Positions 11,258 through 56,600 of a DNA stretch of 64,000 nt are shown here, in pieces. The DNA comes from a virus. The stretch is taken from IMG/VR virus record IMGVR_UViG_3300028840_003271, positions 64,001 to 128,000 of that record; one strand, 5' to 3'. The stretch's first letter is position 1. The number at the start of each line of letters is the position of its first letter. The position numbers and the translations under genes are program-made. The notes beneath the pieces are model-generated. The model saw only the letters and a program-made list of their open reading frames with translations, was not told the origin of the DNA and did no database searches.

Positions 11258-11562
11258 TTTCTTTTCCTTTATTTTAAGGAGAAAAAAACAGACTACTTAA
11301 TTACAATCAATAATAGCACCACCAATCTTTTTCCGTTAGTTCTAGTGCTAAGATAACCGTGTTTTCCGCACTCATTTTTTCTCTCCTTAAATACTGACTA
11401 TGCCTGACTACCGAATTTTCCACCAAATTAGATTGGGTAATCATTTTCACATTTGGTGGCGAATTGTTTCTTTTTTTGTTTTCTCTTTTTTCCTTCTATA
11501 CTACATTTTACCTATTCAGCTTGCCCCACAAGGGGGGGTTGCATAGGCGAGGTGCCGCAACC

Positions 11563-11591
11563 ATTCTAGCATATCGGCAGACCGAATACAA
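11563..11591 (-). promoter_or_regulatory. sigma70-type promoter TTGTAT-N17-TAGAAT with extended TGn
   Basis: minus: ggggTTGTATtcggtctgccgatatgcTAGAAT; A-rich UP-like tract upstream. Confidence 0.8.
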
Positions 11592-11610
11592 CCCCTAGAA
11601 TGTTTTTCTA

Positions 11611-11626
11611 TGGCATAGCTTTTGCT
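11611..11626 (+). promoter_or_regulatory. sigma54 (-24/-12) motif TGGCATAGCTTTTGCT
   Basis: GG-N10-GC, close to consensus TGGCAC-N5-TTGC. Confidence 0.65.
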
Positions 11627-11720
11627 GGAATACCCCCCGATTTGACTAGACAGACGGCTGACACTATATATAGATAATGCCATAGCATTTGTACATCACT
11701 AATGGGAGGGGGGAGCGAAT

Positions 11721-11893
11721 CCCACACCCCCCAAAGGTACCCCCCTAGGTGGAGAATGCTGTGCCCCACACCCCTCGAAGGCACCCCCCTGGTTGGATAG
11801 GGTTGTTCCCCACACCCCCTAGAAGTGCTTCTCCCCTAGGTGGGGGGTAGGGTATCCCTCGCGTGCGAAGCTGGAGTAGGGTATCCCTCGCGT
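11721..11893. repeat. cassette A: three 44-bp units plus GGGTATCCCTCGCGT x2
   Basis: CCCACACCCC at 11721, 11765, 11809; homologous to 12972-13144. Confidence 0.85.
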
Positions 11894-11901
11894 ATGCCCA
11901 C

Positions 11902-11924
11902 AAAAAAAGCCCCCTTGCGGGGGC
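11902..11924 (-). terminator. intrinsic terminator
   Basis: minus: GCCCCC-GCAA-GGGGGC-TTTTTTT (GNRA loop). Confidence 0.9.
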
Positions 11925-11935
11925 GAGCATGTTTC

Positions 11936-12076
11936 CTATCGCTTTGATAGGGTTTTCATGCGTTGTTGGTGGTGCCATCCTGCCTTGTGTCGGTCTAGAT
12001 TGCCTCCTCTGACGCGAAGGCCACATTGAGGGCATTTCTTGGGGCTTTGTTGGGAAGGGTCAGTTTTCGTTGTCAT
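11936..12076 (-). CDS. 46-aa C2H2-like zinc finger mini-protein (below ORF-track cutoff)
   Basis: GGAG RBS; MTTKTDPSQQSPKKCPQCGLRVRGGNLDRHKAGWHHQQRMKTLSKR*; ends just before terminator. Confidence 0.7.
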   Translation of the reverse strand: MTTKTDPSQQSPKKCPQCGLRVRGGNLDRHKAGWHHQQRMKTLSKR

Positions 12077-12113
12077 AACACAGACTCCGTAAAAGGGGAA
12101 GGGAAGCTACAAG

Positions 12114-12329
12114 CTAGTTGATACAATTGGGCGTACGCAAGGGGTGCCCTTTGTCGAACGTGTAACGATAGGGGTCTGCAAGACCATTGTCGATTTGGTG
12201 TTCTTCAGTCTCATATGGTCCTTGGCGAGGACAATCGAGAACTGGGCGGATATGCCACCCTATCGGGGCAATGTGGCGGATTGCTACATAGCCCACTATC
12301 ATATCTTGCGTGCTACCATAAAGGGACAT
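12114..12329 (-). CDS. hypothetical early protein
   Basis: Start MSLYGS; lies between promoter-proximal gene and terminator. Confidence 0.45.
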   Translation of the reverse strand: MSLYGSTQDMIVGYVAIRHIAPIGWHIRPVLDCPRQGPYETEEHQIDNGLADPYRYTFDKGHPLRTPNCIN

Positions 12330-12414
12330 GTTTGATTCTTGGGTTATAGGGTGCAGAGAAGCTGACCTATTCTCCCCCCTCCGGAGAGGGGGGGTGGTAG
12401 GGTAGCTTGCCGTG

Positions 12415-12735
12415 TCACTCTTCAGTGTCTTCAACAAGAAGGGCAGTAAACGCGGTCTTTTTTCCGCTTCCCTTTGCTCGCCCCCTTGGAAGGGAAGGAA
12501 GGATAATCCCCCTTTCCTTCTTCAGGGCATTACGCAGTTCGACGCGAACCTTTTTCGCGTCATCAAGGGACAGTTGAAATTGTTCGGCGAGCTCTTCATT
12601 GGTGAGGGTCGCTTTGCCCTGGGCATCGGTCGCCTGCAATGCAACTACCATAGGGCGGGTACGACGTGCCTTGGCAATCAGTACTTCCCTCGTGTCGCCC
12701 GAAACCGCAACATAATCCTCGTAACTTGCCATCAT
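12415..12735 (-). CDS. putative HTH-like DNA-binding early protein
   Basis: First gene after promoter 12789-12817; LTNEELAEQFQLSLDDAKKVR; basic PRGRAKG. Confidence 0.65.
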   Translation of the reverse strand: MMASYEDYVAVSGDTREVLIAKARRTRPMVVALQATDAQGKATLTNEELAEQFQLSLDDAKKVRVELRNALKKERGIILPSLPRGRAKGSGKKTAFTALLVEDTEE

Positions 12736-12788
12736 TCACCCTTTCGCAAAACAGAGAATAGAATCGGTTGAAACGCACAACACCTCTG

Positions 12789-12817
12789 ATTCTACACTGT
12801 CGACAATCGGAATACAA
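12789..12817 (-). promoter_or_regulatory. sigma70-type promoter TTGTAT-N17-TAGAAT
   Basis: Same hexamers, spacer length and upstream context as 11563-11591. Confidence 0.8.
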
Positions 12818-12846
12818 CCCCTAAAATGTTTTTTTTTGATTCCGTT

Positions 12847-12862
12847 TGGCACAAAATATGCT
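12847..12862 (+). promoter_or_regulatory. sigma54 (-24/-12) motif TGGCACAAAATATGCT
   Basis: GG-N10-GC with perfect TGGCAC. Confidence 0.65.
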
Positions 12863-12971
12863 ATTGGTGACGGACCATCAAGATAGATCGACTGACTGAC
12901 TGACTGACTGACAGACTAACTACTTCGCGTGGGGGGTAACCAGGTCTCCCCCCTGTCGGCAGATACCGTAT

Positions 12972-13144
12972 TCCACACTCCCCAAAGGAGTATCCCCCTT
13001 GTGGAGAGTGTTGTTCCCCACACCCCCCGAAGGTATCCCCCTAGTTGGATAGGGTTGTTCCCCACATCCCCCAGTGGTGTTTATCCCCCGAGTGGGGGGT
13101 GGAGTTCTCCTCGCGTGCGAGATCCAGCAGGGTATCCCTCGTGT
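12972..13144. repeat. cassette B: three ~44-bp units plus GGGTATCCCTCGTGT
   Basis: Units at 12972, 13017, 13061; homologous to 11721-11893. Confidence 0.85.
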
Positions 13145-13145
13145 G

Positions 13146-13397
13146 CTAGGCTAGGCCAAGGGGCAGGAAAAAGTCCCGATCGGCAAGATATTGTTCCATG
13201 CCATGGTACCATGCTGCCCATGCAATAGGATCGTGGGTGAGGGAGAAGGGGTTGTCGGTTGGATGGTCATATCCCCGATTGTACCCCCTCGCATAATGGG
13301 GGTCATACATGAATCTATGCCAATCCCTCTGATTAGGGGGTATGTCGGCAAAATGCCGATCGAGTATTGCAATGTGGCGAAGGGGTTCGGTTAGCAT
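13146..13397 (-). CDS. hypothetical early protein
   Basis: GGGAG RBS; YARGYNRGY...NPF...AWAAWYHG motif. Confidence 0.65.
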   Translation of the reverse strand: MLTEPLRHIAILDRHFADIPPNQRDWHRFMYDPHYARGYNRGYDHPTDNPFSLTHDPIAWAAWYHGMEQYLADRDFFLPLGLA

Positions 13398-13409
13398 GGA
13401 TGATTCTCC

Positions 13410-13715
13410 CTATTCTGAGGGGGCAAGATAGAATCTTATCAAAGCTTGTCTTTCATCTTCCGAAATGGAGGGAAAGACTCCCTTCATATAAGAAGCTTTC
13501 TGTACTCGCGTAAAATGCGGAAGGGGGGTTCCCTTATCGCTCAGTCCGAAAATACGATATAGTAATCGGGGGAGATCACCTTTGAGATGCACACCTTCCC
13601 CCTCATCGAAGGGGGTTTCGCCTTGTGCCCTTCTGCCGAGAGTGTAGAACTGGGCAAGTTCTTCCACCCTTTCGGGAGTAGCTCGCCGAGGGGCATATGG
13701 TATCGGAAGGAACAT
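13410..13715 (-). CDS. hypothetical early protein
   Basis: AGGAGG RBS, TGATG coupling. Confidence 0.7.
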   Translation of the reverse strand: MFLPIPYAPRRATPERVEELAQFYTLGRRAQGETPFDEGEGVHLKGDLPRLLYRIFGLSDKGTPLPHFTRVQKASYMKGVFPSISEDERQALIRFYLAPSE

Positions 13716-14062
13716 CAGGAATCCTCCTTTTGGGGGGTAACTAGATAGGCGAGCATTTTCGCAAACTCATCCGACTTTTGGGGGGTATTGTTCCCTCTCC
13801 TTTTTCTCCCCTGTTTTGAGGTATACTTATACCTCCCCTTGCAATTGTTGGGGTGTTTGCCTACTGCCGTTTTCGGATAGCGGCGAGCTAGGATACCTTC
13901 CGATTCTGCCTGACTTGATATGGCCTTGTCCCTTGTCTTTCTCGCCTCCACTAGTTCCATTGCCTTTTGTGGAGTTAGTTTCTGTATCTCGGCAGAGGAA
14001 AGGTACCGTTTCATAAGAGGCAGCATCATCTCCACCAAAATGGGGGGTGTGTTCTCAGTCAT
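13715..14062 (-). CDS. hypothetical basic early protein
   Basis: Start MTENTPP chosen; upstream extension looks non-coding. Confidence 0.55.
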   Translation of the reverse strand: MTENTPPILVEMMLPLMKRYLSSAEIQKLTPQKAMELVEARKTRDKAISSQAESEGILARRYPKTAVGKHPNNCKGRYKYTSKQGRKRRGNNTPQKSDEFAKMLAYLVTPQKEDS

Positions 14063-14256
14063 CGTATTACTACCTTTTGGGGTGGAAGGGATTGTACTAG
14101 GCCGGTGGTCGAATCGACCACTATAGCTCGTAATCGCTTGCTGTTTGCCTCCCTTACGTAGGCTAGCAGATAGCCCATGCGGGAGGTTCTCAGTCGGTTG
14201 TTTACTGGCGTGCGTCGAATCTCGACTTGCATTGTTCATCCTCCTGCTAGGGGGAA

Positions 14257-14529
14257 CTAGTCCCCCGCTTGCCGAAGTAGTTCCTTTGGGGACAACCCCC
14301 CCGATTGTAGGGCAATCCACTCCGCCCTACTCTGCAATCCCCCCTGCTGGTTGTCGATTCTCCGCCCGATGGTGGGAGAGCTATCGGTATGCAAAGGGGA
14401 TATCGGGGTATTCTGTACAATCCCGAAAAAGGTTCCTTTCGTGCGGGGAGGTTCCTTGCCTCCGATAGGGAAGCACAGTTTCCCTTTGCGGAATTGCCCC
14501 TTGCGTTGACGGGGTTGAATCGTCACCAT
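14257..14529 (-). CDS. hypothetical early protein
   Basis: GAAGGAAG RBS, overlaps upstream stop. Confidence 0.45.
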   Translation of the reverse strand: MVTIQPRQRKGQFRKGKLCFPIGGKEPPRTKGTFFGIVQNTPISPLHTDSSPTIGRRIDNQQGGLQSRAEWIALQSGGLSPKELLRQAGD

Positions 14530-14810
14530 GGTCTTCCTTCATGGAGTATAAAGGTTGCCATTTCATAGGCTAACTTGGCCTGTAATAGACCGAGGTGTGG
14601 CAACACGGACCGAATAACCTTTATCGTGGCAAGTCTTCTCTCATTGCCGCTACTAAGGTTATATTGGCACAATGCCATGATACTTTTGTATTCCTGTTCT
14701 TGCAATTCAAGGGTGGGGTTCGGCTGGTCCATTTGCCACGATCCGTCTGCCTGCTCCCGATACGTTACTACCACGCCATTGTCGCCATGAATTCGGATTA
14801 CGTGTTGCAT
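14523..14810 (-). CDS. protein with ribosomal bL12 (L7/L12) C-terminal-domain-like motif
   Basis: RLATIKVIRSVLPHLGLLQAKLAYE resembles [30 protein letters not shown] RBS. Confidence 0.65.
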   Translation of the reverse strand: MQHVIRIHGDNGVVVTYREQADGSWQMDQPNPTLELQEQEYKSIMALCQYNLSSGNERRLATIKVIRSVLPHLGLLQAKLAYEMATFILHEGRPW

Positions 14811-14841
14811 CGCCGATCCCCTTATGCGAAAGTACAGTTCC

Positions 14842-14887
14842 GATTCTCACCGGATTGTGAGAATCTACCGAAGTATAGCATTGTCAA
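14842..14887 (-). promoter_or_regulatory. probable extended -10 promoter (TGcTATACT) followed by palindrome GATTCTCAC-N6-GTGAGAATC
   Basis: Directly upstream of first island gene; the adjacent TTGACA is too close to serve as -35. Confidence 0.5.
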
Positions 14888-14981
14888 GCCCACCCCCCAA
14901 AAGATATTCGTCGCAAGTCGGTTCATAGTCAATACTTAGGGCAATATTTTTCTCGAAGTGGACACACCGAAAAATGAGACC

Positions 14982-15044
14982 AGCAAACCGTATGCCAATG
15001 GTTCGGTATGGCATTTGCTGTCGGGTTTTGGTACGAAAGTTGCT
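14982..15044. promoter_or_regulatory. cluster of three sigma54-type motifs (14982-14997 minus, 15004-15019 plus, 15029-15044 plus)
   Basis: TGGCATACGGTTTGCT, CGGTATGGCATTTGCT, TGGTACGAAAGTTGCT; all GG-N10-GC. Confidence 0.65.
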
Positions 15045-15243
15045 GTGAGTCCAGGTGGGGGGGATGCCGGCACCCGTAGGATATAGTAGGATTTGGGGCT
15101 GTGGGGCATAGGTTCGCAGAGAAGGGGGAGAACAAACGTTCATACCCCATATGGGTGGGTGGTATTTTCTGATTTTGGGTTGTGGGGGATATTATACCCC
15201 CCAAAAACGGAAGGCATGTATTCTAAATATAGACCAAACAATA

Positions 15244-16188
15244 TCAAACGGACACCTTTTTGTTTCCGTTTCTTACTAATCTTAATCTATCGTTCATATT
15301 ATCTTTATCACTTCCAAGTTCCAAATGGTAAGGATTACAGCATAATTTATTATCACATTTATGACGAACAACCAATCCGTTAAAAGGTTTATTAGAGAAA
15401 AGAAAATACATTAAACGGTGAGCGGGCCATGTACGTCCTGTTAATTTAATTTGTCCATATCCATCTTTACACGTCTTTCTTGTCCACAATAAACATTCTT
15501 CTTTGTCTCTTATAATAATTGATGCTTTATCTCGACCTTTATATTTTAAGTTTTTCAATAATGGATCAAATTTAAACTCAACTCTTGTTTTATCAAAAAA
15601 AGATAAAAAATATTCAACTTGTCGATACGTTAAATTTAATATTTGATGTTTAATAGTAGTATTATATAACATGGTTGAATCAAGCCCATATAAATATCTT
15701 GCTTCTAATTTCATCGCTTCGTGTTCTGTATTCGTATATTTCAAAACACCATATCCAAAATTATCACGTCCTAACTTATTATAATCTTGTTGTAGGTTTC
15801 TATTTTCGTGTTTGTTTTGATTAAGAAATCTAACATGTGTTTGAAATCTATAACCCAAATTTGAAGTATATCCAATATAAAATTTATTATTAATCAAACA
15901 CTGAATAAAATACAACCCACACAAATTTTCCAAACTTGTATTATTGATAATTTGTTTCTCATTATAGTGTGCTACAGTACCAATTTTAATCAACTTGAAC
16001 TCTCGTGCTTTATTATAAATAGCATATTGTGATTTATTAAAATGTTTTTGTAACTCTTTATTTGACATTTTGTGATACAACTTTTTAAATTCTTGTTCGT
16101 CTTTTGCTGTCCAGTGTGAGCGATATTTTTTATTTGGTCCACAAGAACCTTTTGGTCTACCTACTTTCTTTTTTTTCAACATGTACAT
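15244..16188 (-). CDS. homing-endonuclease-like fusion: HTH + GIY-YIG + HNH
   Basis: WTAKDEQ HTH; GLYFIQ..FYIG..RF..H; GYG..AHR..VRHKCDNKLCCNPYHL..N; AGGAGG RBS. Confidence 0.85.
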   Translation of the reverse strand: MYMLKKKKVGRPKGSCGPNKKYRSHWTAKDEQEFKKLYHKMSNKELQKHFNKSQYAIYNKAREFKLIKIGTVAHYNEKQIINNTSLENLCGLYFIQCLINNKFYIGYTSNLGYRFQTHVRFLNQNKHENRNLQQDYNKLGRDNFGYGVLKYTNTEHEAMKLEARYLYGLDSTMLYNTTIKHQILNLTYRQVEYFLSFFDKTRVEFKFDPLLKNLKYKGRDKASIIIRDKEECLLWTRKTCKDGYGQIKLTGRTWPAHRLMYFLFSNKPFNGLVVRHKCDNKLCCNPYHLELGSDKDNMNDRLRLVRNGNKKVSV

Positions 16189-16399
16189 GTATATTATCCT
16201 CCTGTTTTTCTATACACCAAAAAATCCCCCTATGTCCATGTTTAATAATTCCCAACTTCCTCCTCTGTTTACGTAAAGCTTGCAAACTAATTTTTCGCCC
16301 ACTCAAATTCTCCAATTTCCGACATAACTCCTCATCTTTCATGGTGGGAGCTAACTTTTTAATAAGTGCGTGTTCTGCTGGCGTCCACACTATATTCAC
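16157..16399 (-). CDS. small HTH protein, RpoN-box-like; paralog of 19181..19384
   Basis: AAGGAG RBS, GTG start; TMKDEELCRKL...GRKISLQALRKQRRKLGI. Confidence 0.7.
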   Translation of the reverse strand: MNIVWTPAEHALIKKLAPTMKDEELCRKLENLSGRKISLQALRKQRRKLGIIKHGHRGIFWCIEKQEDNIHVHVEKKESR

Positions 16400-19180: not shown

Positions 19181-19384
19181 TTACTGACTTACTACCGTAC
19201 AACCTCGCCCACGAGCCTTTTTAATACCTAATTCTCGACGAACAGCACGCACATCAGACACGGTAAATACTGACCCGTTTTTTTCACTTAATGTTTGAGA
19301 CAGCCTTTTATCTGTCATAGTCGAGGCGTTTTCCTGCACATAAGTCTTAACGTCCTCATTCCACACTTTCTTTACTCTTGCCAT
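19181..19384 (-). CDS. small HTH protein, RpoN-box-like
   Basis: GAGGA RBS before MARVKK; TMTDKRLSQTLSEKNGSVFTVSDVRAVRRELGI. Confidence 0.7.
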   Translation of the reverse strand: MARVKKVWNEDVKTYVQENASTMTDKRLSQTLSEKNGSVFTVSDVRAVRRELGIKKARGRGCTVVSQ

Positions 19385-19505
19385 TTTTTTGTCCTCTCTA
19401 AACTTTTTTTGAGCACTTGTGTTTTTTGAATGACAAACTACTTCGTTTATCATATTATATAATACAGTTCGAAACTTTTTTTTCACAAACAAAAAGGAAA
19501 TTTTC

Positions 19506-19694
19506 ATGACTTTTTTGAAATCAACGCTCGAAGTTAAGGCTGTGGGCGGACTTACGGAGCAAATCGGTGGTGAAATTAATTTACCAGATCCACCAAAAGA
19601 GGTTGCTCAGGCAATGTTAATGTCTATCGACGAAATAGACGAAGACGATGAAGAAGAAAACAAAAAAAATGCAAATTCCAAACGGAATGACTGA
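19506..19694 (+). CDS. small acidic hypothetical protein
   Basis: AAGGA RBS; leads the sigma-factor operon. Confidence 0.6.
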   Translation: MTFLKSTLEVKAVGGLTEQIGGEINLPDPPKEVAQAMLMSIDEIDEDDEEENKKNANSKRND

Positions 19695-20253
19695 AAATGA
19701 AGTTGTTGAAATTATTAATAAAATAGCTCGACGACTTTCTACAATTTTTCGATTTGGATATTATAGTGCGGACGATATATTTCAAGAGGCATGGATTATT
19801 GCTATCGAGGGTTTAAACCGATATTCTGTTCAAAAGGGTCCTCTTGAAAACTTTCTTTGGATACATGTTCGTAATCGTTTGTGTAATTTTAAAAGAAATA
19901 AATATGAAAGATTGGAAAAACCTTGTAAAAGATGCATATACGACTGTGAAGAATCACCGTTGTGTGAAATTTATAATAAATGGTTAAAAAGACGAGATAG
20001 TAAAAAAAATTTGGTAGATATGATCGACTTGAATTGCGTAGATGATAAATATGAAAAAAATATGAAAATTGTTAATGAATATGGAGATATTGATCATTTG
20101 TCTGAAATTATTGATAAATTTTTACCTCCACAATATCGTCGTGACTATTTACAGATGATTGGTGGTATATATGTGCCCAAAAAAAGACGAATTGAAATTC
20201 AGAATATAATTCGTGAAATTCTAGAAGAACATGGATATGATATTGATTTTTAA
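19648..20253 (+). CDS. phage RNA polymerase sigma factor (sigma70 region-2 type), probable late sigma
   Basis: DDIFQEAWIIAIEGLNRY...LENFLWIHVRNRL; start may be 19669. Confidence 0.8.
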   Translation: MKKKTKKMQIPNGMTENEVVEIINKIARRLSTIFRFGYYSADDIFQEAWIIAIEGLNRYSVQKGPLENFLWIHVRNRLCNFKRNKYERLEKPCKRCIYDCEESPLCEIYNKWLKRRDSKKNLVDMIDLNCVDDKYEKNMKIVNEYGDIDHLSEIIDKFLPPQYRRDYLQMIGGIYVPKKRRIEIQNIIREILEEHGYDIDF

Positions 20254-36186: not shown

Positions 36187-39153
36187 ATGATAAATAGAAT
36201 AGTTATATTTATTGTTATGTTATTAGTTCCGACAGTTGCTGTTGCTGGTTGGCGAAATTCATCTTGTACTGTATATCATGTTACGAGTTTATCTGGAGAT
36301 GGAACAGGAAGTGGTACATTTCGAGATGCTGTTGCTGCTGATGGAGACGATATTGATACACCAAGAATTGTAGTTTTTGATATTGGTGGAATGATTCGGC
36401 CGACTAGTAGAATTAGTATTACGCGAAACAATTTGTATATCGCAGGTCAGACTGCACCAGGTGGAATTACGATTGCTGGAGCGGAAGTAAGGATACCTGG
36501 TACGTTTCATGCCGATGGAGAGCGGGATGAAGGAGATAATACTTATCACGATATTTGTATTCGTCATGTTCGGTTCTATTGTAATCACCTCGATACATCT
36601 TCTCAGCGGGGTAGTCTCCGCAGTTTTTCAGCAATCAACGCAGACCGGTTGATTCTTGACCATTGTTCGTTTATGGGGTCGTCGGATGAGTCGCCTGGAT
36701 TCTATCTCTGCGACGACGTTACGCTGAGTCATTGTGTCATCTTCGATCCGGCTCTTTGTGGTCAGGGCGGGGGATACCATGACGAGGGCAATCACCACTT
36801 TGGTCCTCTGTTCTCGTATTCCGACTTTGGCCAGTATGACGTACATCATTGCCTGCTCGCCAACGTCTACTACAGGATGCCTAATATCGCGGTGCCTGAT
36901 GGTTTGGGCTGCGAAATGATTAACAACGTGTTCTTCAACTGGGAGGCACTTGGTCCTTGGGTGATGTGTAATCATGCTGAGGCTTATTGCAACTACGAAG
37001 GCAACTCGATGATTGCTGGGGCCAGTAGTGTTGCCGCAGGCAAGAAGAAGTTCATGTTCTCGCCAGACGGATCGTATGATCTTTTACTTTATCGTAATGA
37101 TAATGATTATCATATCGACGGGAGCTGGGAGGATTGGACTGCTACACACAGTGTTGATATGTATGATCCCGATGGTGATAAAAATGAACAGGAATCGCGA
37201 TGGACAAGTCCAACATTATGGCCTATTACAAGATCTGCTAGAGCAACTGCTTATACGAACGTACTAGCAAATGCTGGGGCTTGGCCGAGAGATGCGGCTG
37301 TGCGAAAATTGGTTGCTGATGTAGCTAATCTTCAATCTGGTGGTTCAATGGGATTAAAGTATCCAATTGAACATTTTTCGAGTGATAGTGATGGGCCAAC
37401 TGCTGCTGCCAATGACGATGATCGTGATGGAATGAACGATACTTGGGAAGACGAAAATGGGTACGATAAAACCGATGCAACTGATTTTAAAGAATTTGTT
37501 ACTAGTGGTGAGTATGATGGTTTTATGGCAATCGAGTGGTATCTTGAGACGCTGCACGATGCGAAAGAGGCGGTTGATGGTACGCTGCGTACCCTGACGC
37601 TTTCCAAGACCGGAACCGGGGCCATCTGTCCATCATATGGTCGCATTACCCAGGATGGTCTATTCGCCTGGGGTGGACGCGACATGGGGCAGTGGTATGG
37701 GCAGATTGATCTCGTCACCAACTCTCCCTACAGTTACAACGATGGCTCGATTGTTGTGTTACGGGCACGTCCGACTCGCAAGCCGGGTTACGATGATAGT
37801 GTTGCTGGTACGGTCTTTAGCAAATGGGACTGTGACGGCGAGGACATAGATGAACAGACCGCACCTCACATCGAATTCCCGATTGGAAAAGATCTGACAA
37901 TTGATGCCGTTTTTACCAACGCTACTCAACGAACTATTACTACGACTGTTGATGGGACTGGGACTGTATGGGGTGGTGGTGATTATGATGATGGTGAAGT
38001 GGTAACACTTATTGCTTATAGTACTGGTGGTACACACGACTTTAAACAATGGAACCAAACGGCTGGAGATGCTCATGCAATGGATGGGCATGACGGACCA
38101 ATTCTTCAATTTCATGCAGATGGTGATTATACGTGGGAAGCCGAATTTGAGGCAGGTTCGGCCGATGACGTGTTGATCGACGACTTTGACGACCAAGACC
38201 TAAGCGATACGGAATGGGGTAGTTTGACATGGATTCTTGGAGGTGTGCCTGGTGCATTTGGGGCTTCTTCCGGTTTAGAGCATTATGACTTCGGCGGCGG
38301 TGACTATGGCATTCGATACTATCAGCAGTCAGGCGGGATTGCCAATCTGATCCTGCGAAGGGACACGGCCGAACCTCCGAACGGACTTGGGGTAGACCCA
38401 TACTACGAGATTCCCGATGGCACGGTCGCCTTGGCATTTGACATCCACAACAAAGATGACGGGGCCGATGTGGCTAAGCTCGATCCCCAGTTGTCGCCAT
38501 ATGGTAGAAGTTGTCCGTTTGAATATGCAGACAGATTTTATGTGGCATGGAAAGTCGGCGATAGTAGTTGGGGTTGGGACGACCGCGAGGACAATCGGTT
38601 TTGGCACCACTTCAGCGACAGATGGAGGGTGCCAGAGATTGCAGTAGACGCCAGCCATACTGTGGTGATCCCGCTGATTTTCTTAAATGGGCACACTTAC
38701 GATACCGATCATCAGGTCACAGATCAATCCAAGTTTGGCGTATTCTGGGCGGAGTATTTTCTGCATGCCCGCGTTTGGGATGATGCCTGGGTAGTCATGG
38801 ATGATATTCGGTGGTTGCGGGCTGATACGGCCGCGTTGAGTTGGTCGGACGTGACGCCCGTTGCTCACGCGGGAGCTGACCAGACCACAAAGGACTTTGA
38901 TTCATCCGGCGGTGAGACTATTCTTTTGGATGGCACGAAGTCGATTTGCCCAGATGGCGAGATGATTGCTGAGGCAAACTACGATTGGAGTTGGACGGAC
39001 GAAGGTGGGGAGAAGACAGCGGAAGGACCAACTGCACTGGTGACAATTGAGGAAGATGACGGTGACACGGTAACTGTTACTCTTACAATTACGGATGGAG
39101 ATAACGATACGGATACAGATACCGTAGATATTACAATAGCGGCTCCGCCATAA
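36187..39153 (+). CDS. secreted pectate lyase (PL1-like) with Ig-like repeats and C-terminal PKD-like domain
   Basis: Signal peptide AVA; VTSL..G.GTFRDAV, PRIVVFD.GG.I, IAGQTAPGG, DHCSF..SSDE, RMP, DxDxDGM.D.WE; PVAHAGADQT. Confidence 0.85.
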   Translation: MINRIVIFIVMLLVPTVAVAGWRNSSCTVYHVTSLSGDGTGSGTFRDAVAADGDDIDTPRIVVFDIGGMIRPTSRISITRNNLYIAGQTAPGGITIAGAEVRIPGTFHADGERDEGDNTYHDICIRHVRFYCNHLDTSSQRGSLRSFSAINADRLILDHCSFMGSSDESPGFYLCDDVTLSHCVIFDPALCGQGGGYHDEGNHHFGPLFSYSDFGQYDVHHCLLANVYYRMPNIAVPDGLGCEMINNVFFNWEALGPWVMCNHAEAYCNYEGNSMIAGASSVAAGKKKFMFSPDGSYDLLLYRNDNDYHIDGSWEDWTATHSVDMYDPDGDKNEQESRWTSPTLWPITRSARATAYTNVLANAGAWPRDAAVRKLVADVANLQSGGSMGLKYPIEHFSSDSDGPTAAANDDDRDGMNDTWEDENGYDKTDATDFKEFVTSGEYDGFMAIEWYLETLHDAKEAVDGTLRTLTLSKTGTGAICPSYGRITQDGLFAWGGRDMGQWYGQIDLVTNSPYSYNDGSIVVLRARPTRKPGYDDSVAGTVFSKWDCDGEDIDEQTAPHIEFPIGKDLTIDAVFTNATQRTITTTVDGTGTVWGGGDYDDGEVVTLIAYSTGGTHDFKQWNQTAGDAHAMDGHDGPILQFHADGDYTWEAEFEAGSADDVLIDDFDDQDLSDTEWGSLTWILGGVPGAFGASSGLEHYDFGGGDYGIRYYQQSGGIANLILRRDTAEPPNGLGVDPYYEIPDGTVALAFDIHNKDDGADVAKLDPQLSPYGRSCPFEYADRFYVAWKVGDSSWGWDDREDNRFWHHFSDRWRVPEIAVDASHTVVIPLIFLNGHTYDTDHQVTDQSKFGVFWAEYFLHARVWDDAWVVMDDIRWLRADTAALSWSDVTPVAHAGADQTTKDFDSSGGETILLDGTKSICPDGEMIAEANYDWSWTDEGGEKTAEGPTALVTIEEDDGDTVTVTLTITDGDNDTDTDTVDITIAAPP

Positions 39154-53643: not shown

Positions 53644-56600
53644 ATGGCTGAAGCATTTCAATTAACGGCACAGGTGGTTCTTAAAGGACCAGATGTAAAT
53701 AAATTAAAGGGAGATTTGGAAAGAAAACTTAAAGGTAAGTTGGTATATCCTATTCGATTTAAATTGCCCGCCGCTGCTGATTTGAGAAAAGCTATAAAAA
53801 AGAAGTTGGGTTCTCTTCAGTATAATGTTCGACTAACCTTTCCTAAAAATGTAAAAACAGATGTTGATGCTGTTACCGGCAGTTTTGAAAAATTAACAAA
53901 GCAAATTAGTAATACTGCTTTGACTAAAGACAAGTTTATAAATAACTTAAAGACTCTTCAGAAGAATCTTAATTTAACTGTTCGTCAACAACAAAAAGCT
54001 ACGACATCTACGCAGAAAAACGCAAAATCTATGAAGGAGGGTGAAAAGGCCGCTCAAAGTTTTGCTCATGGCATTTTTCTTGCAGGTTCTCGTTATGCGA
54101 AATTCGTAATTGCTACTGGTGGTGCTGTTATTGCATTACGAGAATTAAAGGAGGGGTTGTCTCAAGCAGTAGAATTTGAAAGATCATTATTAAGAGTTGC
54201 TCAAGTTGGTGGGGTTTCACTAAAAACTATTCGTGGATTAGGAAGTGAAATTCGTGACGTTGCTATTCAATATGGTGTGGCTGGTCAAGAATTAGCTGAA
54301 ATTGGTTTGATTTTAAAACAATCTGGTTTTTCAATGGAAAAGGTTGGTCAGCTTCTTCCTGTTTTTGCTAAGGCTAAATTGTCTCCAACTATTTCAAATC
54401 TACAAGACGTAGCTAATGCTGTTATTTTGTTACAAAGATTTGGTCAGACAGATGTGGGTGAATTAGAGCGAAGTTTGTCTGCAATTAACACTATTGCTGG
54501 ACAGTTTCCGGTTGAAGCTCAAGACCTGATTACTGGACTATCTCGTGCTGGTGGTGCATTTTTAAACACGAGTGATAGGGTGAGAGAACTTTTATCTCTA
54601 CTTGGAACTCTTCGGGCCACTACTCGTGAAAGTGCTCAGGCTTTGGGTGTTTCTTTACGTACTGTTATTACTCGACTACAAAGATTAAGGTCTATTCAAA
54701 CCGCTCGTAAGTTAGGTGTGGAATTTGTTGAAGGTGGGCAATTTGTTGGTGTTTTTGAAGCGTTTAAACGGTTGTCAGAAGCTCAGAAGCGTTTTCAAGG
54801 TCGTGGACAGAATCTTTTCTTTACTCAACAATTAGAGCAAATTGTAGGTTTAAGACAAGTTTCTCGAATGTCATCGCTTATTCAAAATATGGCGATGGCT
54901 CAAGAAATGTTAATTGCTTCACAAAAAGAAGGTAATACTCTTGCTAAAGATGCTGCGACTGCTCAAGAGGCTTTAGCTGTTCAATTAACAAAGGTTCGTG
55001 AACGGTTGTCGAAGGTTTTTGATGAATTTTTGGCTAGTGATAGGGTGAGAGAATTCACACGAAGTATTATTGATGGTGGTAATGCTTTAATTAGTTTTGT
55101 TTCTAAGTTAGATAATGTTGCTGGTAGTTTAGCTGATGTTGCTCCACTATTGGCTGTTTTGTTTGCTAGTAATAGATTAGGTGGATTTATTCAGGCTGGT
55201 AAATTGCCTGGTGGTAAGTTACCAAGTGCTTCTGCAAATTGGGCTGGAGTTGGTGGTAAAACTGGATTTTTTAAAAATACAGTTAAAACTTTTGGTCCTC
55301 GTGTAGACACTCCTCGTAATTTGAGACTTTCACAGCCTTTGATGGGTCATATGGGTATGAGTTTTGTAAATCAACCTCGTATTTTACAACGTCGTTTTAC
55401 ACCTTGGCGTGGTATAAAAGGTTTAGCTGGTAGAATGGGAGAAGGTTTAGGTCAAGCAGGACAGGCTTTAGGTCGGTTAGGTCCAGGAGCAATGGTTGGT
55501 GGTGCTGTTGGTGCTCAAGTAATTGCTCAACAATTTGAAAAATTAGAACATCCGATTGCTCATGGTATTTTAACTGGAGTTACGAATGGATTGTTGGTAG
55601 GCATGGTGAATCCATTAGCTGGAGCTGCCGTTGGTGTAACTTCAGCTTTTAATGAGTTAATTGATACTCTTGCTGATAAAGACATTGCTAAATTATTTGC
55701 TGGTATGGAGCAAGAGTTAATTAACTTTAAATTTGGATTACGTGAAGCTGGTGGTAGCAAGGAAGAAATTAGAAATCTTGTTTTAGGTCGTATTAGAAGT
55801 ATTCGAACTCGTTTGGGTCGTGCTGAAAGTTTTGAACCAAGTACAGCATCTTTTGTAAAAGCCTATCGTCAGAGTGGTGGGTGGGCAAGAAAATGGTTAA
55901 CTCCAATACAAATGATTAATGAATTTGCAAGAGGTGAAGGCGGAGGTATTAGTAGAGATATTAGACAACAAATTAGATTGCAGGCAAGGGAGAAGATAGT
56001 GGGACAAACATTATCTACTCCAGAGGGTCGTCAATTATTAACGGAAACCCGTGACACTTTTGCTACTTTGTTTAAGAGTTTTAAAGAATTTGAAGCTGAT
56101 GAACTTGGTAGTCAATTAATTTCATTAGCTGTAGAAGCTGGTATTAATGAACAAGCGTTTATTAAAAATACTAAAGAAATTATTGCTAATGCACAAACAG
56201 TACGAGATAATACTAAAATACTACAAACTTCACAACAGTTTTTATCTGCTGGAACTTTTGCTTTACGTAGTCGTTTAAATAGACAACCTAGATTAAGAGA
56301 TATTACTAATCCACAAGGTTCTACAGCAGCGTTGTTTGGTAATGTTGGTAATACTTCTCAAATACGTGAGGGTTTAAATAGATTAGGAGTTAATAGAGGA
56401 CAGAGAAGCTGGGGTATAGGTATTTCTAGTGTAATACAAGGTTTGACAGCCAGAGGAACTGTTGGAGACGATGTAACAAATGCAAATATTCAAAAAGATA
56501 TATCTAATCGACTTATAAATAGTTTATATCTTGAAGGAATCGATAAAGAAGTTCGTGAATCTTTAAATTCTTTAGTAACGGAAGCATTTGAGGGTGCGTC

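Follow-up and report, generated by a model that had tools for sequence, protein, structure and literature searches.

Organization of the locus

The viral record is a complete genome of 170,004 bp with direct terminal repeats and a GC content of 32%, and the window (the whole stretch of DNA analysed here, 64,000 nucleotides in length) corresponds to its bases 64001-128000. Between positions ~11500 and 15230 of the window lies a GC-rich island of 3.7 kb, with 51% GC and sharp edges. All of the credible island genes are carried on the minus strand. Six of them, small and ORFan, form an operon with Shine-Dalgarno sites and overlapping stop and start codons, the first ATG being at position 14810; a 106-aa ORF and a clear terminator follow (Table 1). 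Shine-Dalgarno usage in the phage was intermediate (37% of the ORFs, versus a background of 4%).

At the right-hand head of the island, three motifs of 16 nucleotides, here termed boxes A, B and C, occupy the gap between the 95-aa ORF (14523-14810, minus strand) and the GIY-YIG/HNH gene. A first-pass annotation of the sequence had picked them out as sigma-54-type motifs, and they were found at exactly the positions and on the strands given there. Its placing of the motifs in non-coding DNA at the head of the island also held, the gap extending over positions 14811-15243 at the right end of the island.

Table 1. Positions of the boxes and neighbouring features (window coordinates, except for the second sigma-70-family factor)
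Feature	Position	Strand	Remarks
Cassette 1 box	11611..11626	+	leftward promoter-like TTGTAT-17-TAGAAT nearby, its -35 at a distance of 19 nt
Terminator, clear	11924-11909		beyond the 106-aa ORF
106-aa ORF (78 aa in another call)	12735-12415	-	after the six-gene operon
Cassette 2 box	12847..12862	+	cores kept; spacer unlike that of cassette 1 at 4 of 5 positions; ~29 nt from a leftward promoter-like site
Island operon, six small ORFan genes (95, 90, 57, ~116, 101, 83 aa)	13146..14810	-	sequence read directly
Candidate weak sigma-70 promoter, TTGACT-17-GAATAT	14904..14932	-	8 of 12 positions, below the scan threshold; read from the sequence
Box A, TGGCATACGGTTTGCT	14982-14997	-	1 mismatch to TGGCAC-N5-TTGC; faces the island operon
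Box B, CGGTATGGCATTTGCT	15004-15019	+	degenerate: -24 half CGGTAT, 3 mismatches to TGGCAC; intact TTGCT
Box C, TGGTACGAAAGTTGCT	15029-15044	+	1 mismatch; faces right into the G-rich non-coding stretch
G-rich stretch	15050..15215	+	C-rich unit core in inverted copies; G5/C6 palindromes
Sigma-70-like promoter, TTGATA-16-TAGAAT	15220..15247	-	10 of 12 positions; right edge of the island
Endonuclease ORF, GIY-YIG and HNH domains	15244-16188	-	Pfam E 5e-9 and 8e-8
Mini-protein, 80 aa, three-helix HTH-like fold	16157..16399	-	predicted model
Mini-protein paralogue	19181..19507	-	
Sigma-70-family factor gene, region 2	19648..20253	+	synteny anchor; start of the rightward late arm
Second sigma-70-family factor, region 2	G000:C1:143127-143336	-	

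None of the island ORFs could be assigned to a Pfam or PHROG family. No homologues were detected for the 106-aa and 95-aa ORFs in a word-index search of a 5.8-billion-cluster protein collection, nor for the 101-aa ORF in an exhaustive search of the 1.84 billion representatives of that collection, and two of the island ORFs were searched in the viral contigs, again without homologues. Comparison of the island with a phage collection yielded no match besides the HNH gene. The 106-aa ORF has no Pfam match; its sequence pattern and its Atlas model, which is of low confidence, are reminiscent of sigma-70 region 4 or of GerE-type HTH domains. Immediately ahead of the first gene of the operon, the leader contains two overlapping and mutually exclusive hairpins (14839-14862; TTCTCAC...GTGAGAA and TCCG...CGGA), which have the appearance of an operator or attenuator.

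A cassette of 340 bp is duplicated within the island (11563-11900 and 12789-13150). It contains a palindromic ATTCTAG...CTAGAAT stretch, which provides promoter-like hexamers on both strands, one sigma-54-type box, three C-rich units of 44 nt and GGGTATCCCTCG repeats, together with (GACT)n tetranucleotide repeats that interrupt each of the three plus-strand frames with a TGA stop. The 16-mer of the repeat unit gave chance matches only in the viral contigs, and the stretch from 14811 to 15243 has short words alone in common with the cassettes. Structured RNA and rRNA were considered as the content of the island and rejected, Rfam and tRNA scans having found nothing there. The flanking transcripts did not fold clearly better than shuffled sequences (z -0.7 to -1.4); the one exception was cassette 1 on its minus strand, where terminator hairpins are present (z -2.9). 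A second GC-rich stretch of the window (36187-39153, plus strand) is coding and lies inside a 988-aa ORF, the N-terminal part of which is pectate-lyase-like; no sigma-54-type box with one mismatch or fewer was found in it.

The boxes and what they face

The bacterial sigma-54 (RpoN) promoter consensus was reportedly defined by Barrios et al. in 1999 as YTGGCACGrNNNTTGCW. All three boxes at the head of the island have the exact GG-N10-GC spacing and the TTGCT ending ascribed to them in the first-pass annotation, although box B has a poor -24 half, and the count of five island sites given there was reproduced, since further boxes with the same exact spacing occur at 11611 and 12847 (both on the plus strand). 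Boxes A and B are placed back-to-back, 6 bp apart. Boxes A and C and the two cassette boxes each deviate from the core at a single one of 10 positions. TGG-A and TGCT are common to all five island boxes, and the spacers all differ from one another, those of the paralogous cassettes included; such retention of the cores while the spacers diverge is what selection on a bipartite recognition site would be expected to produce. Positions of the extended consensus also agree: a pyrimidine and then a purine follow TGGCA in all five, a T or A follows the GC in all five, and a T precedes TGG in four.

The whole 170-kb genome was scanned with the core TGGCAC-N5-TTGC (GG and GC fixed, at most one mismatch). 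Five matches were obtained, four of which (11611+, 12847+, 14983- and 15029+) lie in the island. The fifth, at 54069 on the plus strand, is situated outside the island, within an ORF. Motif density along the genome and in shuffled sequence, the comparison that this annotation had proposed, agreed with its view of the island, as the four matches observed there compare with a mean of 0.12 in 3000 dinucleotide shuffles, none of which reached four. With the looser pattern of the first-pass annotation, four island matches were found versus 0.54 expected (P=0.003), and three matches within 50 bp were encountered in none of the 3000 shuffles. Enrichment, exact spacing, confinement to the island and agreement at extended-consensus positions thus support, at the level of sequence, the designation of the motifs as genuine sigma-54-type boxes.

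The boxes had been described as having no genes to drive. This applies to boxes B and C, which point right into the G-rich non-coding stretch and then at the 3' end of the convergent endonuclease gene, and no credible plus-strand ORF was found downstream of these two or of the cassette boxes. Box A, by contrast, faces the six-gene operon; if the usual -12 geometry applies, transcription from it would start near position 14971, ~160 nt before the operon ATG. The candidate promoter TTGACT-17-GAATAT is located 49 nt downstream of box A, a position that resembles the 47-nt class of the related phages described below, and the promoter at 15247-15220 is upstream of the whole cluster and fires leftwards across the boxes.

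A module conserved in related phages

Viral contigs were scanned for opposed boxes, in the form AGCAA-N6-TGCCA followed after 0-30 nt by TGGCA-N6-TTGCT. At least 120 contigs carried such pairs, versus a single one for a symmetric, composition-matched control pattern, which contains CG dinucleotides and is perhaps itself somewhat depleted. Among 226 distinct half-sites from the viral contigs listed, the positions left free by the pattern again followed the extended consensus: TGGCA is followed by a pyrimidine in 91% and then by a purine in 91% (G in 66%), and TGG is preceded by T in 57%.

Twelve of the contigs among the matches listed belong to relatives of the window phage. They are syntenic with positions 19.6-33 kb of the window, a span that runs from the sigma-factor gene up to and including the terminase gene, with identities of 34-45% for the sigma-70-family factor and 50-55% for the large terminase. 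All twelve carry a (-)(+) pair or a (-)(+)(+) triple of boxes beyond the sigma-factor gene, and this cluster heads a GC-rich early region. With the relatives oriented so that the sigma gene is rightmost, the box order of the window phage recurs in L026 (3952-, 3996+, 4031+) and in L086 (7648-, 7680+, 7707+), and ACGGT, the spacer of box A, is found again in boxes of the relatives. The first-pass annotation had treated the three motifs as a stand-alone array; they are instead the counterpart of a module conserved in the 12 related contigs, at recurring distances from sigma-70 promoters. Most likely, to judge from these sequence comparisons, they represent the window phage's version of a conserved control module in a family of phages of ~150-170 kb.

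Exact TGGCAY-N5-TTGC boxes number 9, 4, 12 and 10 in the records of four relatives, in which the reversed control pattern has no match, and all are concentrated in one part of each record, the GC-rich early part. This part has a GC content of 0.41-0.55, beside a late region of ~0.29-0.40. In every case the GC-rich region lies beyond the sigma-factor gene (window 11500-15230; L086:1-7500; L026:1-4500; L093:4500-8441), and its small ORFs show no similarity between the relatives, nor to the island ORFs. Since a GC-rich early region is common to the relatives, the island is a trait of the family, and a recent foreign insert or plasmid is unlikely as its origin; it appears to be an early region that evolves fast and is unusual in its composition. 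Units of G6/C6 palindromes comparable to those of the G-rich stretch of the window phage are present at the matching position in the relatives.

Within this region of the relatives, opposed pairs of boxes recur at intervals of ~1.1-1.2 kb. In most of the relatives, the co-oriented box is followed by a near-consensus sigma-70 promoter (TTGACA or TTGACT, 16 nt, TATAAT), at a distance of 25 nt (4 cases), 36-37 nt (6 cases) or 47 nt (2 cases), and the partner box points the opposite way, against the direction of the early genes. These steps of ~11 nt suggest helical phasing; they are suggestive only, as some of the modules may be paralogous copies. The gap between opposed boxes is variable (8, 9, 15, 16, 17 and 29 nt within the family), and about half of the family's boxes face away from genes. 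The boxes of the window phage are weaker and fewer than those of its relatives, and the layout of boxes and promoters is looser. In L026 (3900-3945), L132 (1790-1835) and L065 (145-190), three to four direct repeats of TTAGGATT, with a period of 11 nt, are located between the leftward box and the sigma-70 promoter. These repeats are probably binding sites of some other protein, possibly the AT-hook mini-protein considered below.

Opposed boxes in other phages and in bacteria

The largest other groups of viral contigs with opposed boxes have different terminase and portal families and contain none of the top protein families of the relatives. No box-to-promoter distance common to these non-related viral loci was found. 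Opposed pairs also occur in bacterial genomes (at least 120 loci), where they usually stand alone: among the matches listed, five or more boxes were counted in 74 of 120 viral loci, partly non-independent (83 of 119 fall into one cluster by single linkage), versus 7 of 120 bacterial ones. None of the bacterial loci among the matches listed was related to the phage.

A second, unrelated phage group (L083, L099, L106 and ~22 further loci) is characterized by a 420-aa T4-type terminase and an SU10-like portal. Its opposed boxes are located at a median of 276 bp from the gene of an AT-hook protein of 147-189 aa, which accompanies the terminase gene in 22 of 25 loci and may be a small terminase subunit.

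Candidate readers of the boxes

No sigma-54 DNA-binding domain is encoded in the complete phage genome, nor was an activator ATPase (bEBP) detected in it; the lone weak PF00158 signal belongs to RuvB. A phage-encoded sigma-54 or activator was accordingly set aside as reader, and neither was found in the fragments of five relatives. A k-mer search for a shared enhancer upstream of the boxes returned only C6/G6 words that occur island-wide. The two phage sigma-70-type factors were likewise rejected, by inference from the half-sites, as their gap of 6 nt misfits a -35/-10 geometry.

In 11 of the 12 relatives, the mini-protein gene has the sigma-factor gene on one side and the box cluster on the other, and the mini-protein family (72-108 aa) is the only one conserved beside the box clusters. 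The predicted model is a three-helix bundle (mean pLDDT 71), and in the relatives the helices are followed by an RGRP AT-hook-like tail; two members of the family gave a weak match to the AT-hook family. Sequence and fold searches returned generic HTH matches only (the GcrA DNA-binding domain, small-terminase HTH, FapR and SANT, with fold E>0.5), and a sigma-N chain ranked 35th in the fold search (E 2.2). Neither Pfam nor the PDB sequence search connected the mini-protein with PF04552 or a sigma-54 C-terminal domain, so that the RpoN-box-like phage protein put forward in the first-pass annotation drew no support from Pfam, PDB sequence or fold searches. On the strength of its model, the mini-protein may be regarded as a fair candidate for a DNA binder. 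In the relatives, the box cluster adjoins the mini-protein gene. In the window phage the two are separated by the GIY-YIG/HNH ORF, which therefore looks like a homing-endonuclease insertion; this ORF also has an AT-hook and Myb-like stretch at its N-terminus.

The mini-protein was found in none of the 108 other viral opposed-box loci listed, in flanks of ~5-7 kb. As opposed boxes thus occur in phage groups that lack it, the simplest reader is a host factor common to many bacteria. The recognition of DNA by sigma-54 is conserved. An rpoN-containing host, as the first-pass annotation had supposed, is plausible.

Interpretation of the boxes

In our estimation there is about an even chance that the boxes are docking sites for the host sigma-54 RNA polymerase and form part of the early-promoter cassettes of the family, the polymerase being the presumptive binder. 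The module would then consist of sigma-54-type -24/-12 boxes at the head of the GC-rich early region, repeated within that region and bound by the host sigma-54 polymerase. Box A could serve the island operon as a tandem promoter that depends on an activator, and boxes B and C would be its back-to-back partners, facing away from genes. The outward-facing boxes may give rise to antisense transcripts, or may merely hold closed complexes. Bound polymerase may gate or supplement the adjacent early sigma-70 promoters. Since the phage has no activator ATPase of its own, such a polymerase would either stay in a closed complex or depend on an active host activator for firing. Two features sit awkwardly with ordinary promoters: that about half of the family's boxes face away from genes is odd, and with strong sigma-70 promoters adjoining, a sigma-54 promoter seems redundant.

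The boxes might instead be operators for a phage-encoded DNA-binding protein, which would turn the early sigma-70 promoters on or off together, their likeness to sigma-54 sites being incidental or a mimicry; this we consider a serious possibility, if on balance an unlikely one. The protein could be the mini-protein, its paralogue, or an HTH protein of the island, for instance the 106-aa ORF with its likeness to sigma-70 region 4 or GerE. The persistence of the mini-protein gene beside the cluster, its HTH-like model, and the RGRP tails and AT-hook matches of its family all speak for such a binder, as do the boxes themselves, which are clustered in both orientations in the manner of operators and precede early promoters at positions like those of activator sites, with increments of roughly one helical turn. 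However, the sigma-54 consensus is matched at more than 12 positions, some of which were not used for detection, and the mini-protein has no sequence likeness to the sigma-54 DNA-binding domain. Opposed boxes are moreover present in phage groups without the mini-protein in the flanks covered, and the variable gap (8-29 nt) misfits one dimer bound across both boxes.

Alternatively, the boxes may trap the host sigma-54 holoenzyme in dead-end closed complexes, no transcription being intended, and replication of the phage would then titrate sigma-54 and blunt the sigma-54-dependent responses of the host. Such a decoy, close to what the first-pass annotation had envisaged, appears improbable to us. 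The missing activator in the complete genome, the many boxes that face no gene, the 4-12 near-perfect boxes per relative's fragment and the excess of box-rich loci among the viral matches listed are in its favour. A sink, however, needs no fixed place, whereas the boxes of the relatives keep recurring promoter distances at the same syntenic spot; their conserved place next to sigma-70 promoters points to an effect in cis and away from a free-standing sink. The window phage, with just 4-5 boxes, two of them imperfect, would in addition make a poor sink, and box A is correctly placed for driving the operon. That the motifs are functionless products of GC-rich composition or of duplication has scarcely any probability left, in spite of the paralogy of the cassette copies at 11611 and 12847 and the degenerate state of box B, and is refuted for practical purposes by the shuffles, none of which reached the observed count, by cores that are kept while spacers diverge, and by the conservation of the cluster in relatives whose surrounding ORFs have no similarity to those of the island.

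Comparison with known systems and significance

Enhancer-dependent sigma-54 promoters of bacteria include glnAp2, pspA and nifH. Like the bacterial promoters, the phage boxes have GG and GC one helical turn apart and conform to the extended consensus, and box A is upstream of an operon and points at it. Unlike them, the boxes occur in a phage genome, clustered, opposed and partly gene-less, neither an activator gene nor an enhancer site was found, and those of the relatives are immediately upstream of strong sigma-70 promoters.

Class I activator sites, such as those of CRP, are centred at -61.5, -72.5 and -82.5. The phage boxes share with these sites, and with the operators of phage early promoters, a location upstream of sigma-70 promoters and steps of about one turn; they differ from class I sites in that their sequence is that of a sigma-54 site and that no binding protein is known for them.

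To our knowledge, sigma-54 transcription in phages is almost unstudied. In the literature, no description of such box arrays was found, only single phage promoters, as in YuA. Pseudomonas phage YuA has a sigma-54-like promoter with a mapped transcription start (Ceyssens et al. 2008, as cited in PMC10914365); here too a phage without a sigma-54 of its own carries a sigma-54-type promoter, as does the phage described here. A single such promoter is described for YuA in that paper (PMC10914365), in contrast to the back-to-back arrays found here in each early cassette and conserved across the family. A recent preprint presents a phage protein that is activator-like but lacks the sigma-54 contact motif.

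More broadly, activator-less box arrays within early-promoter cassettes could form a general takeover device in several unrelated lineages of large uncultured phages, parking host sigma-54 polymerase as closed complexes that gate the neighbouring early sigma-70 promoters in cis and draw sigma-54 away from host stress and defence regulons in trans; we offer this as a doubtful extension, with a small chance of being right. The significance of the module lies in a whole phage family that keeps near-perfect sigma-54 boxes at each early cassette without an activator. If the host sigma-54 polymerase docks there, early expression would be coupled to the stress or nutrient signalling of the host, or the closed complex would serve as a regulatory or titrating device. 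Either outcome, if true, would represent a new mode of host-polymerase use.
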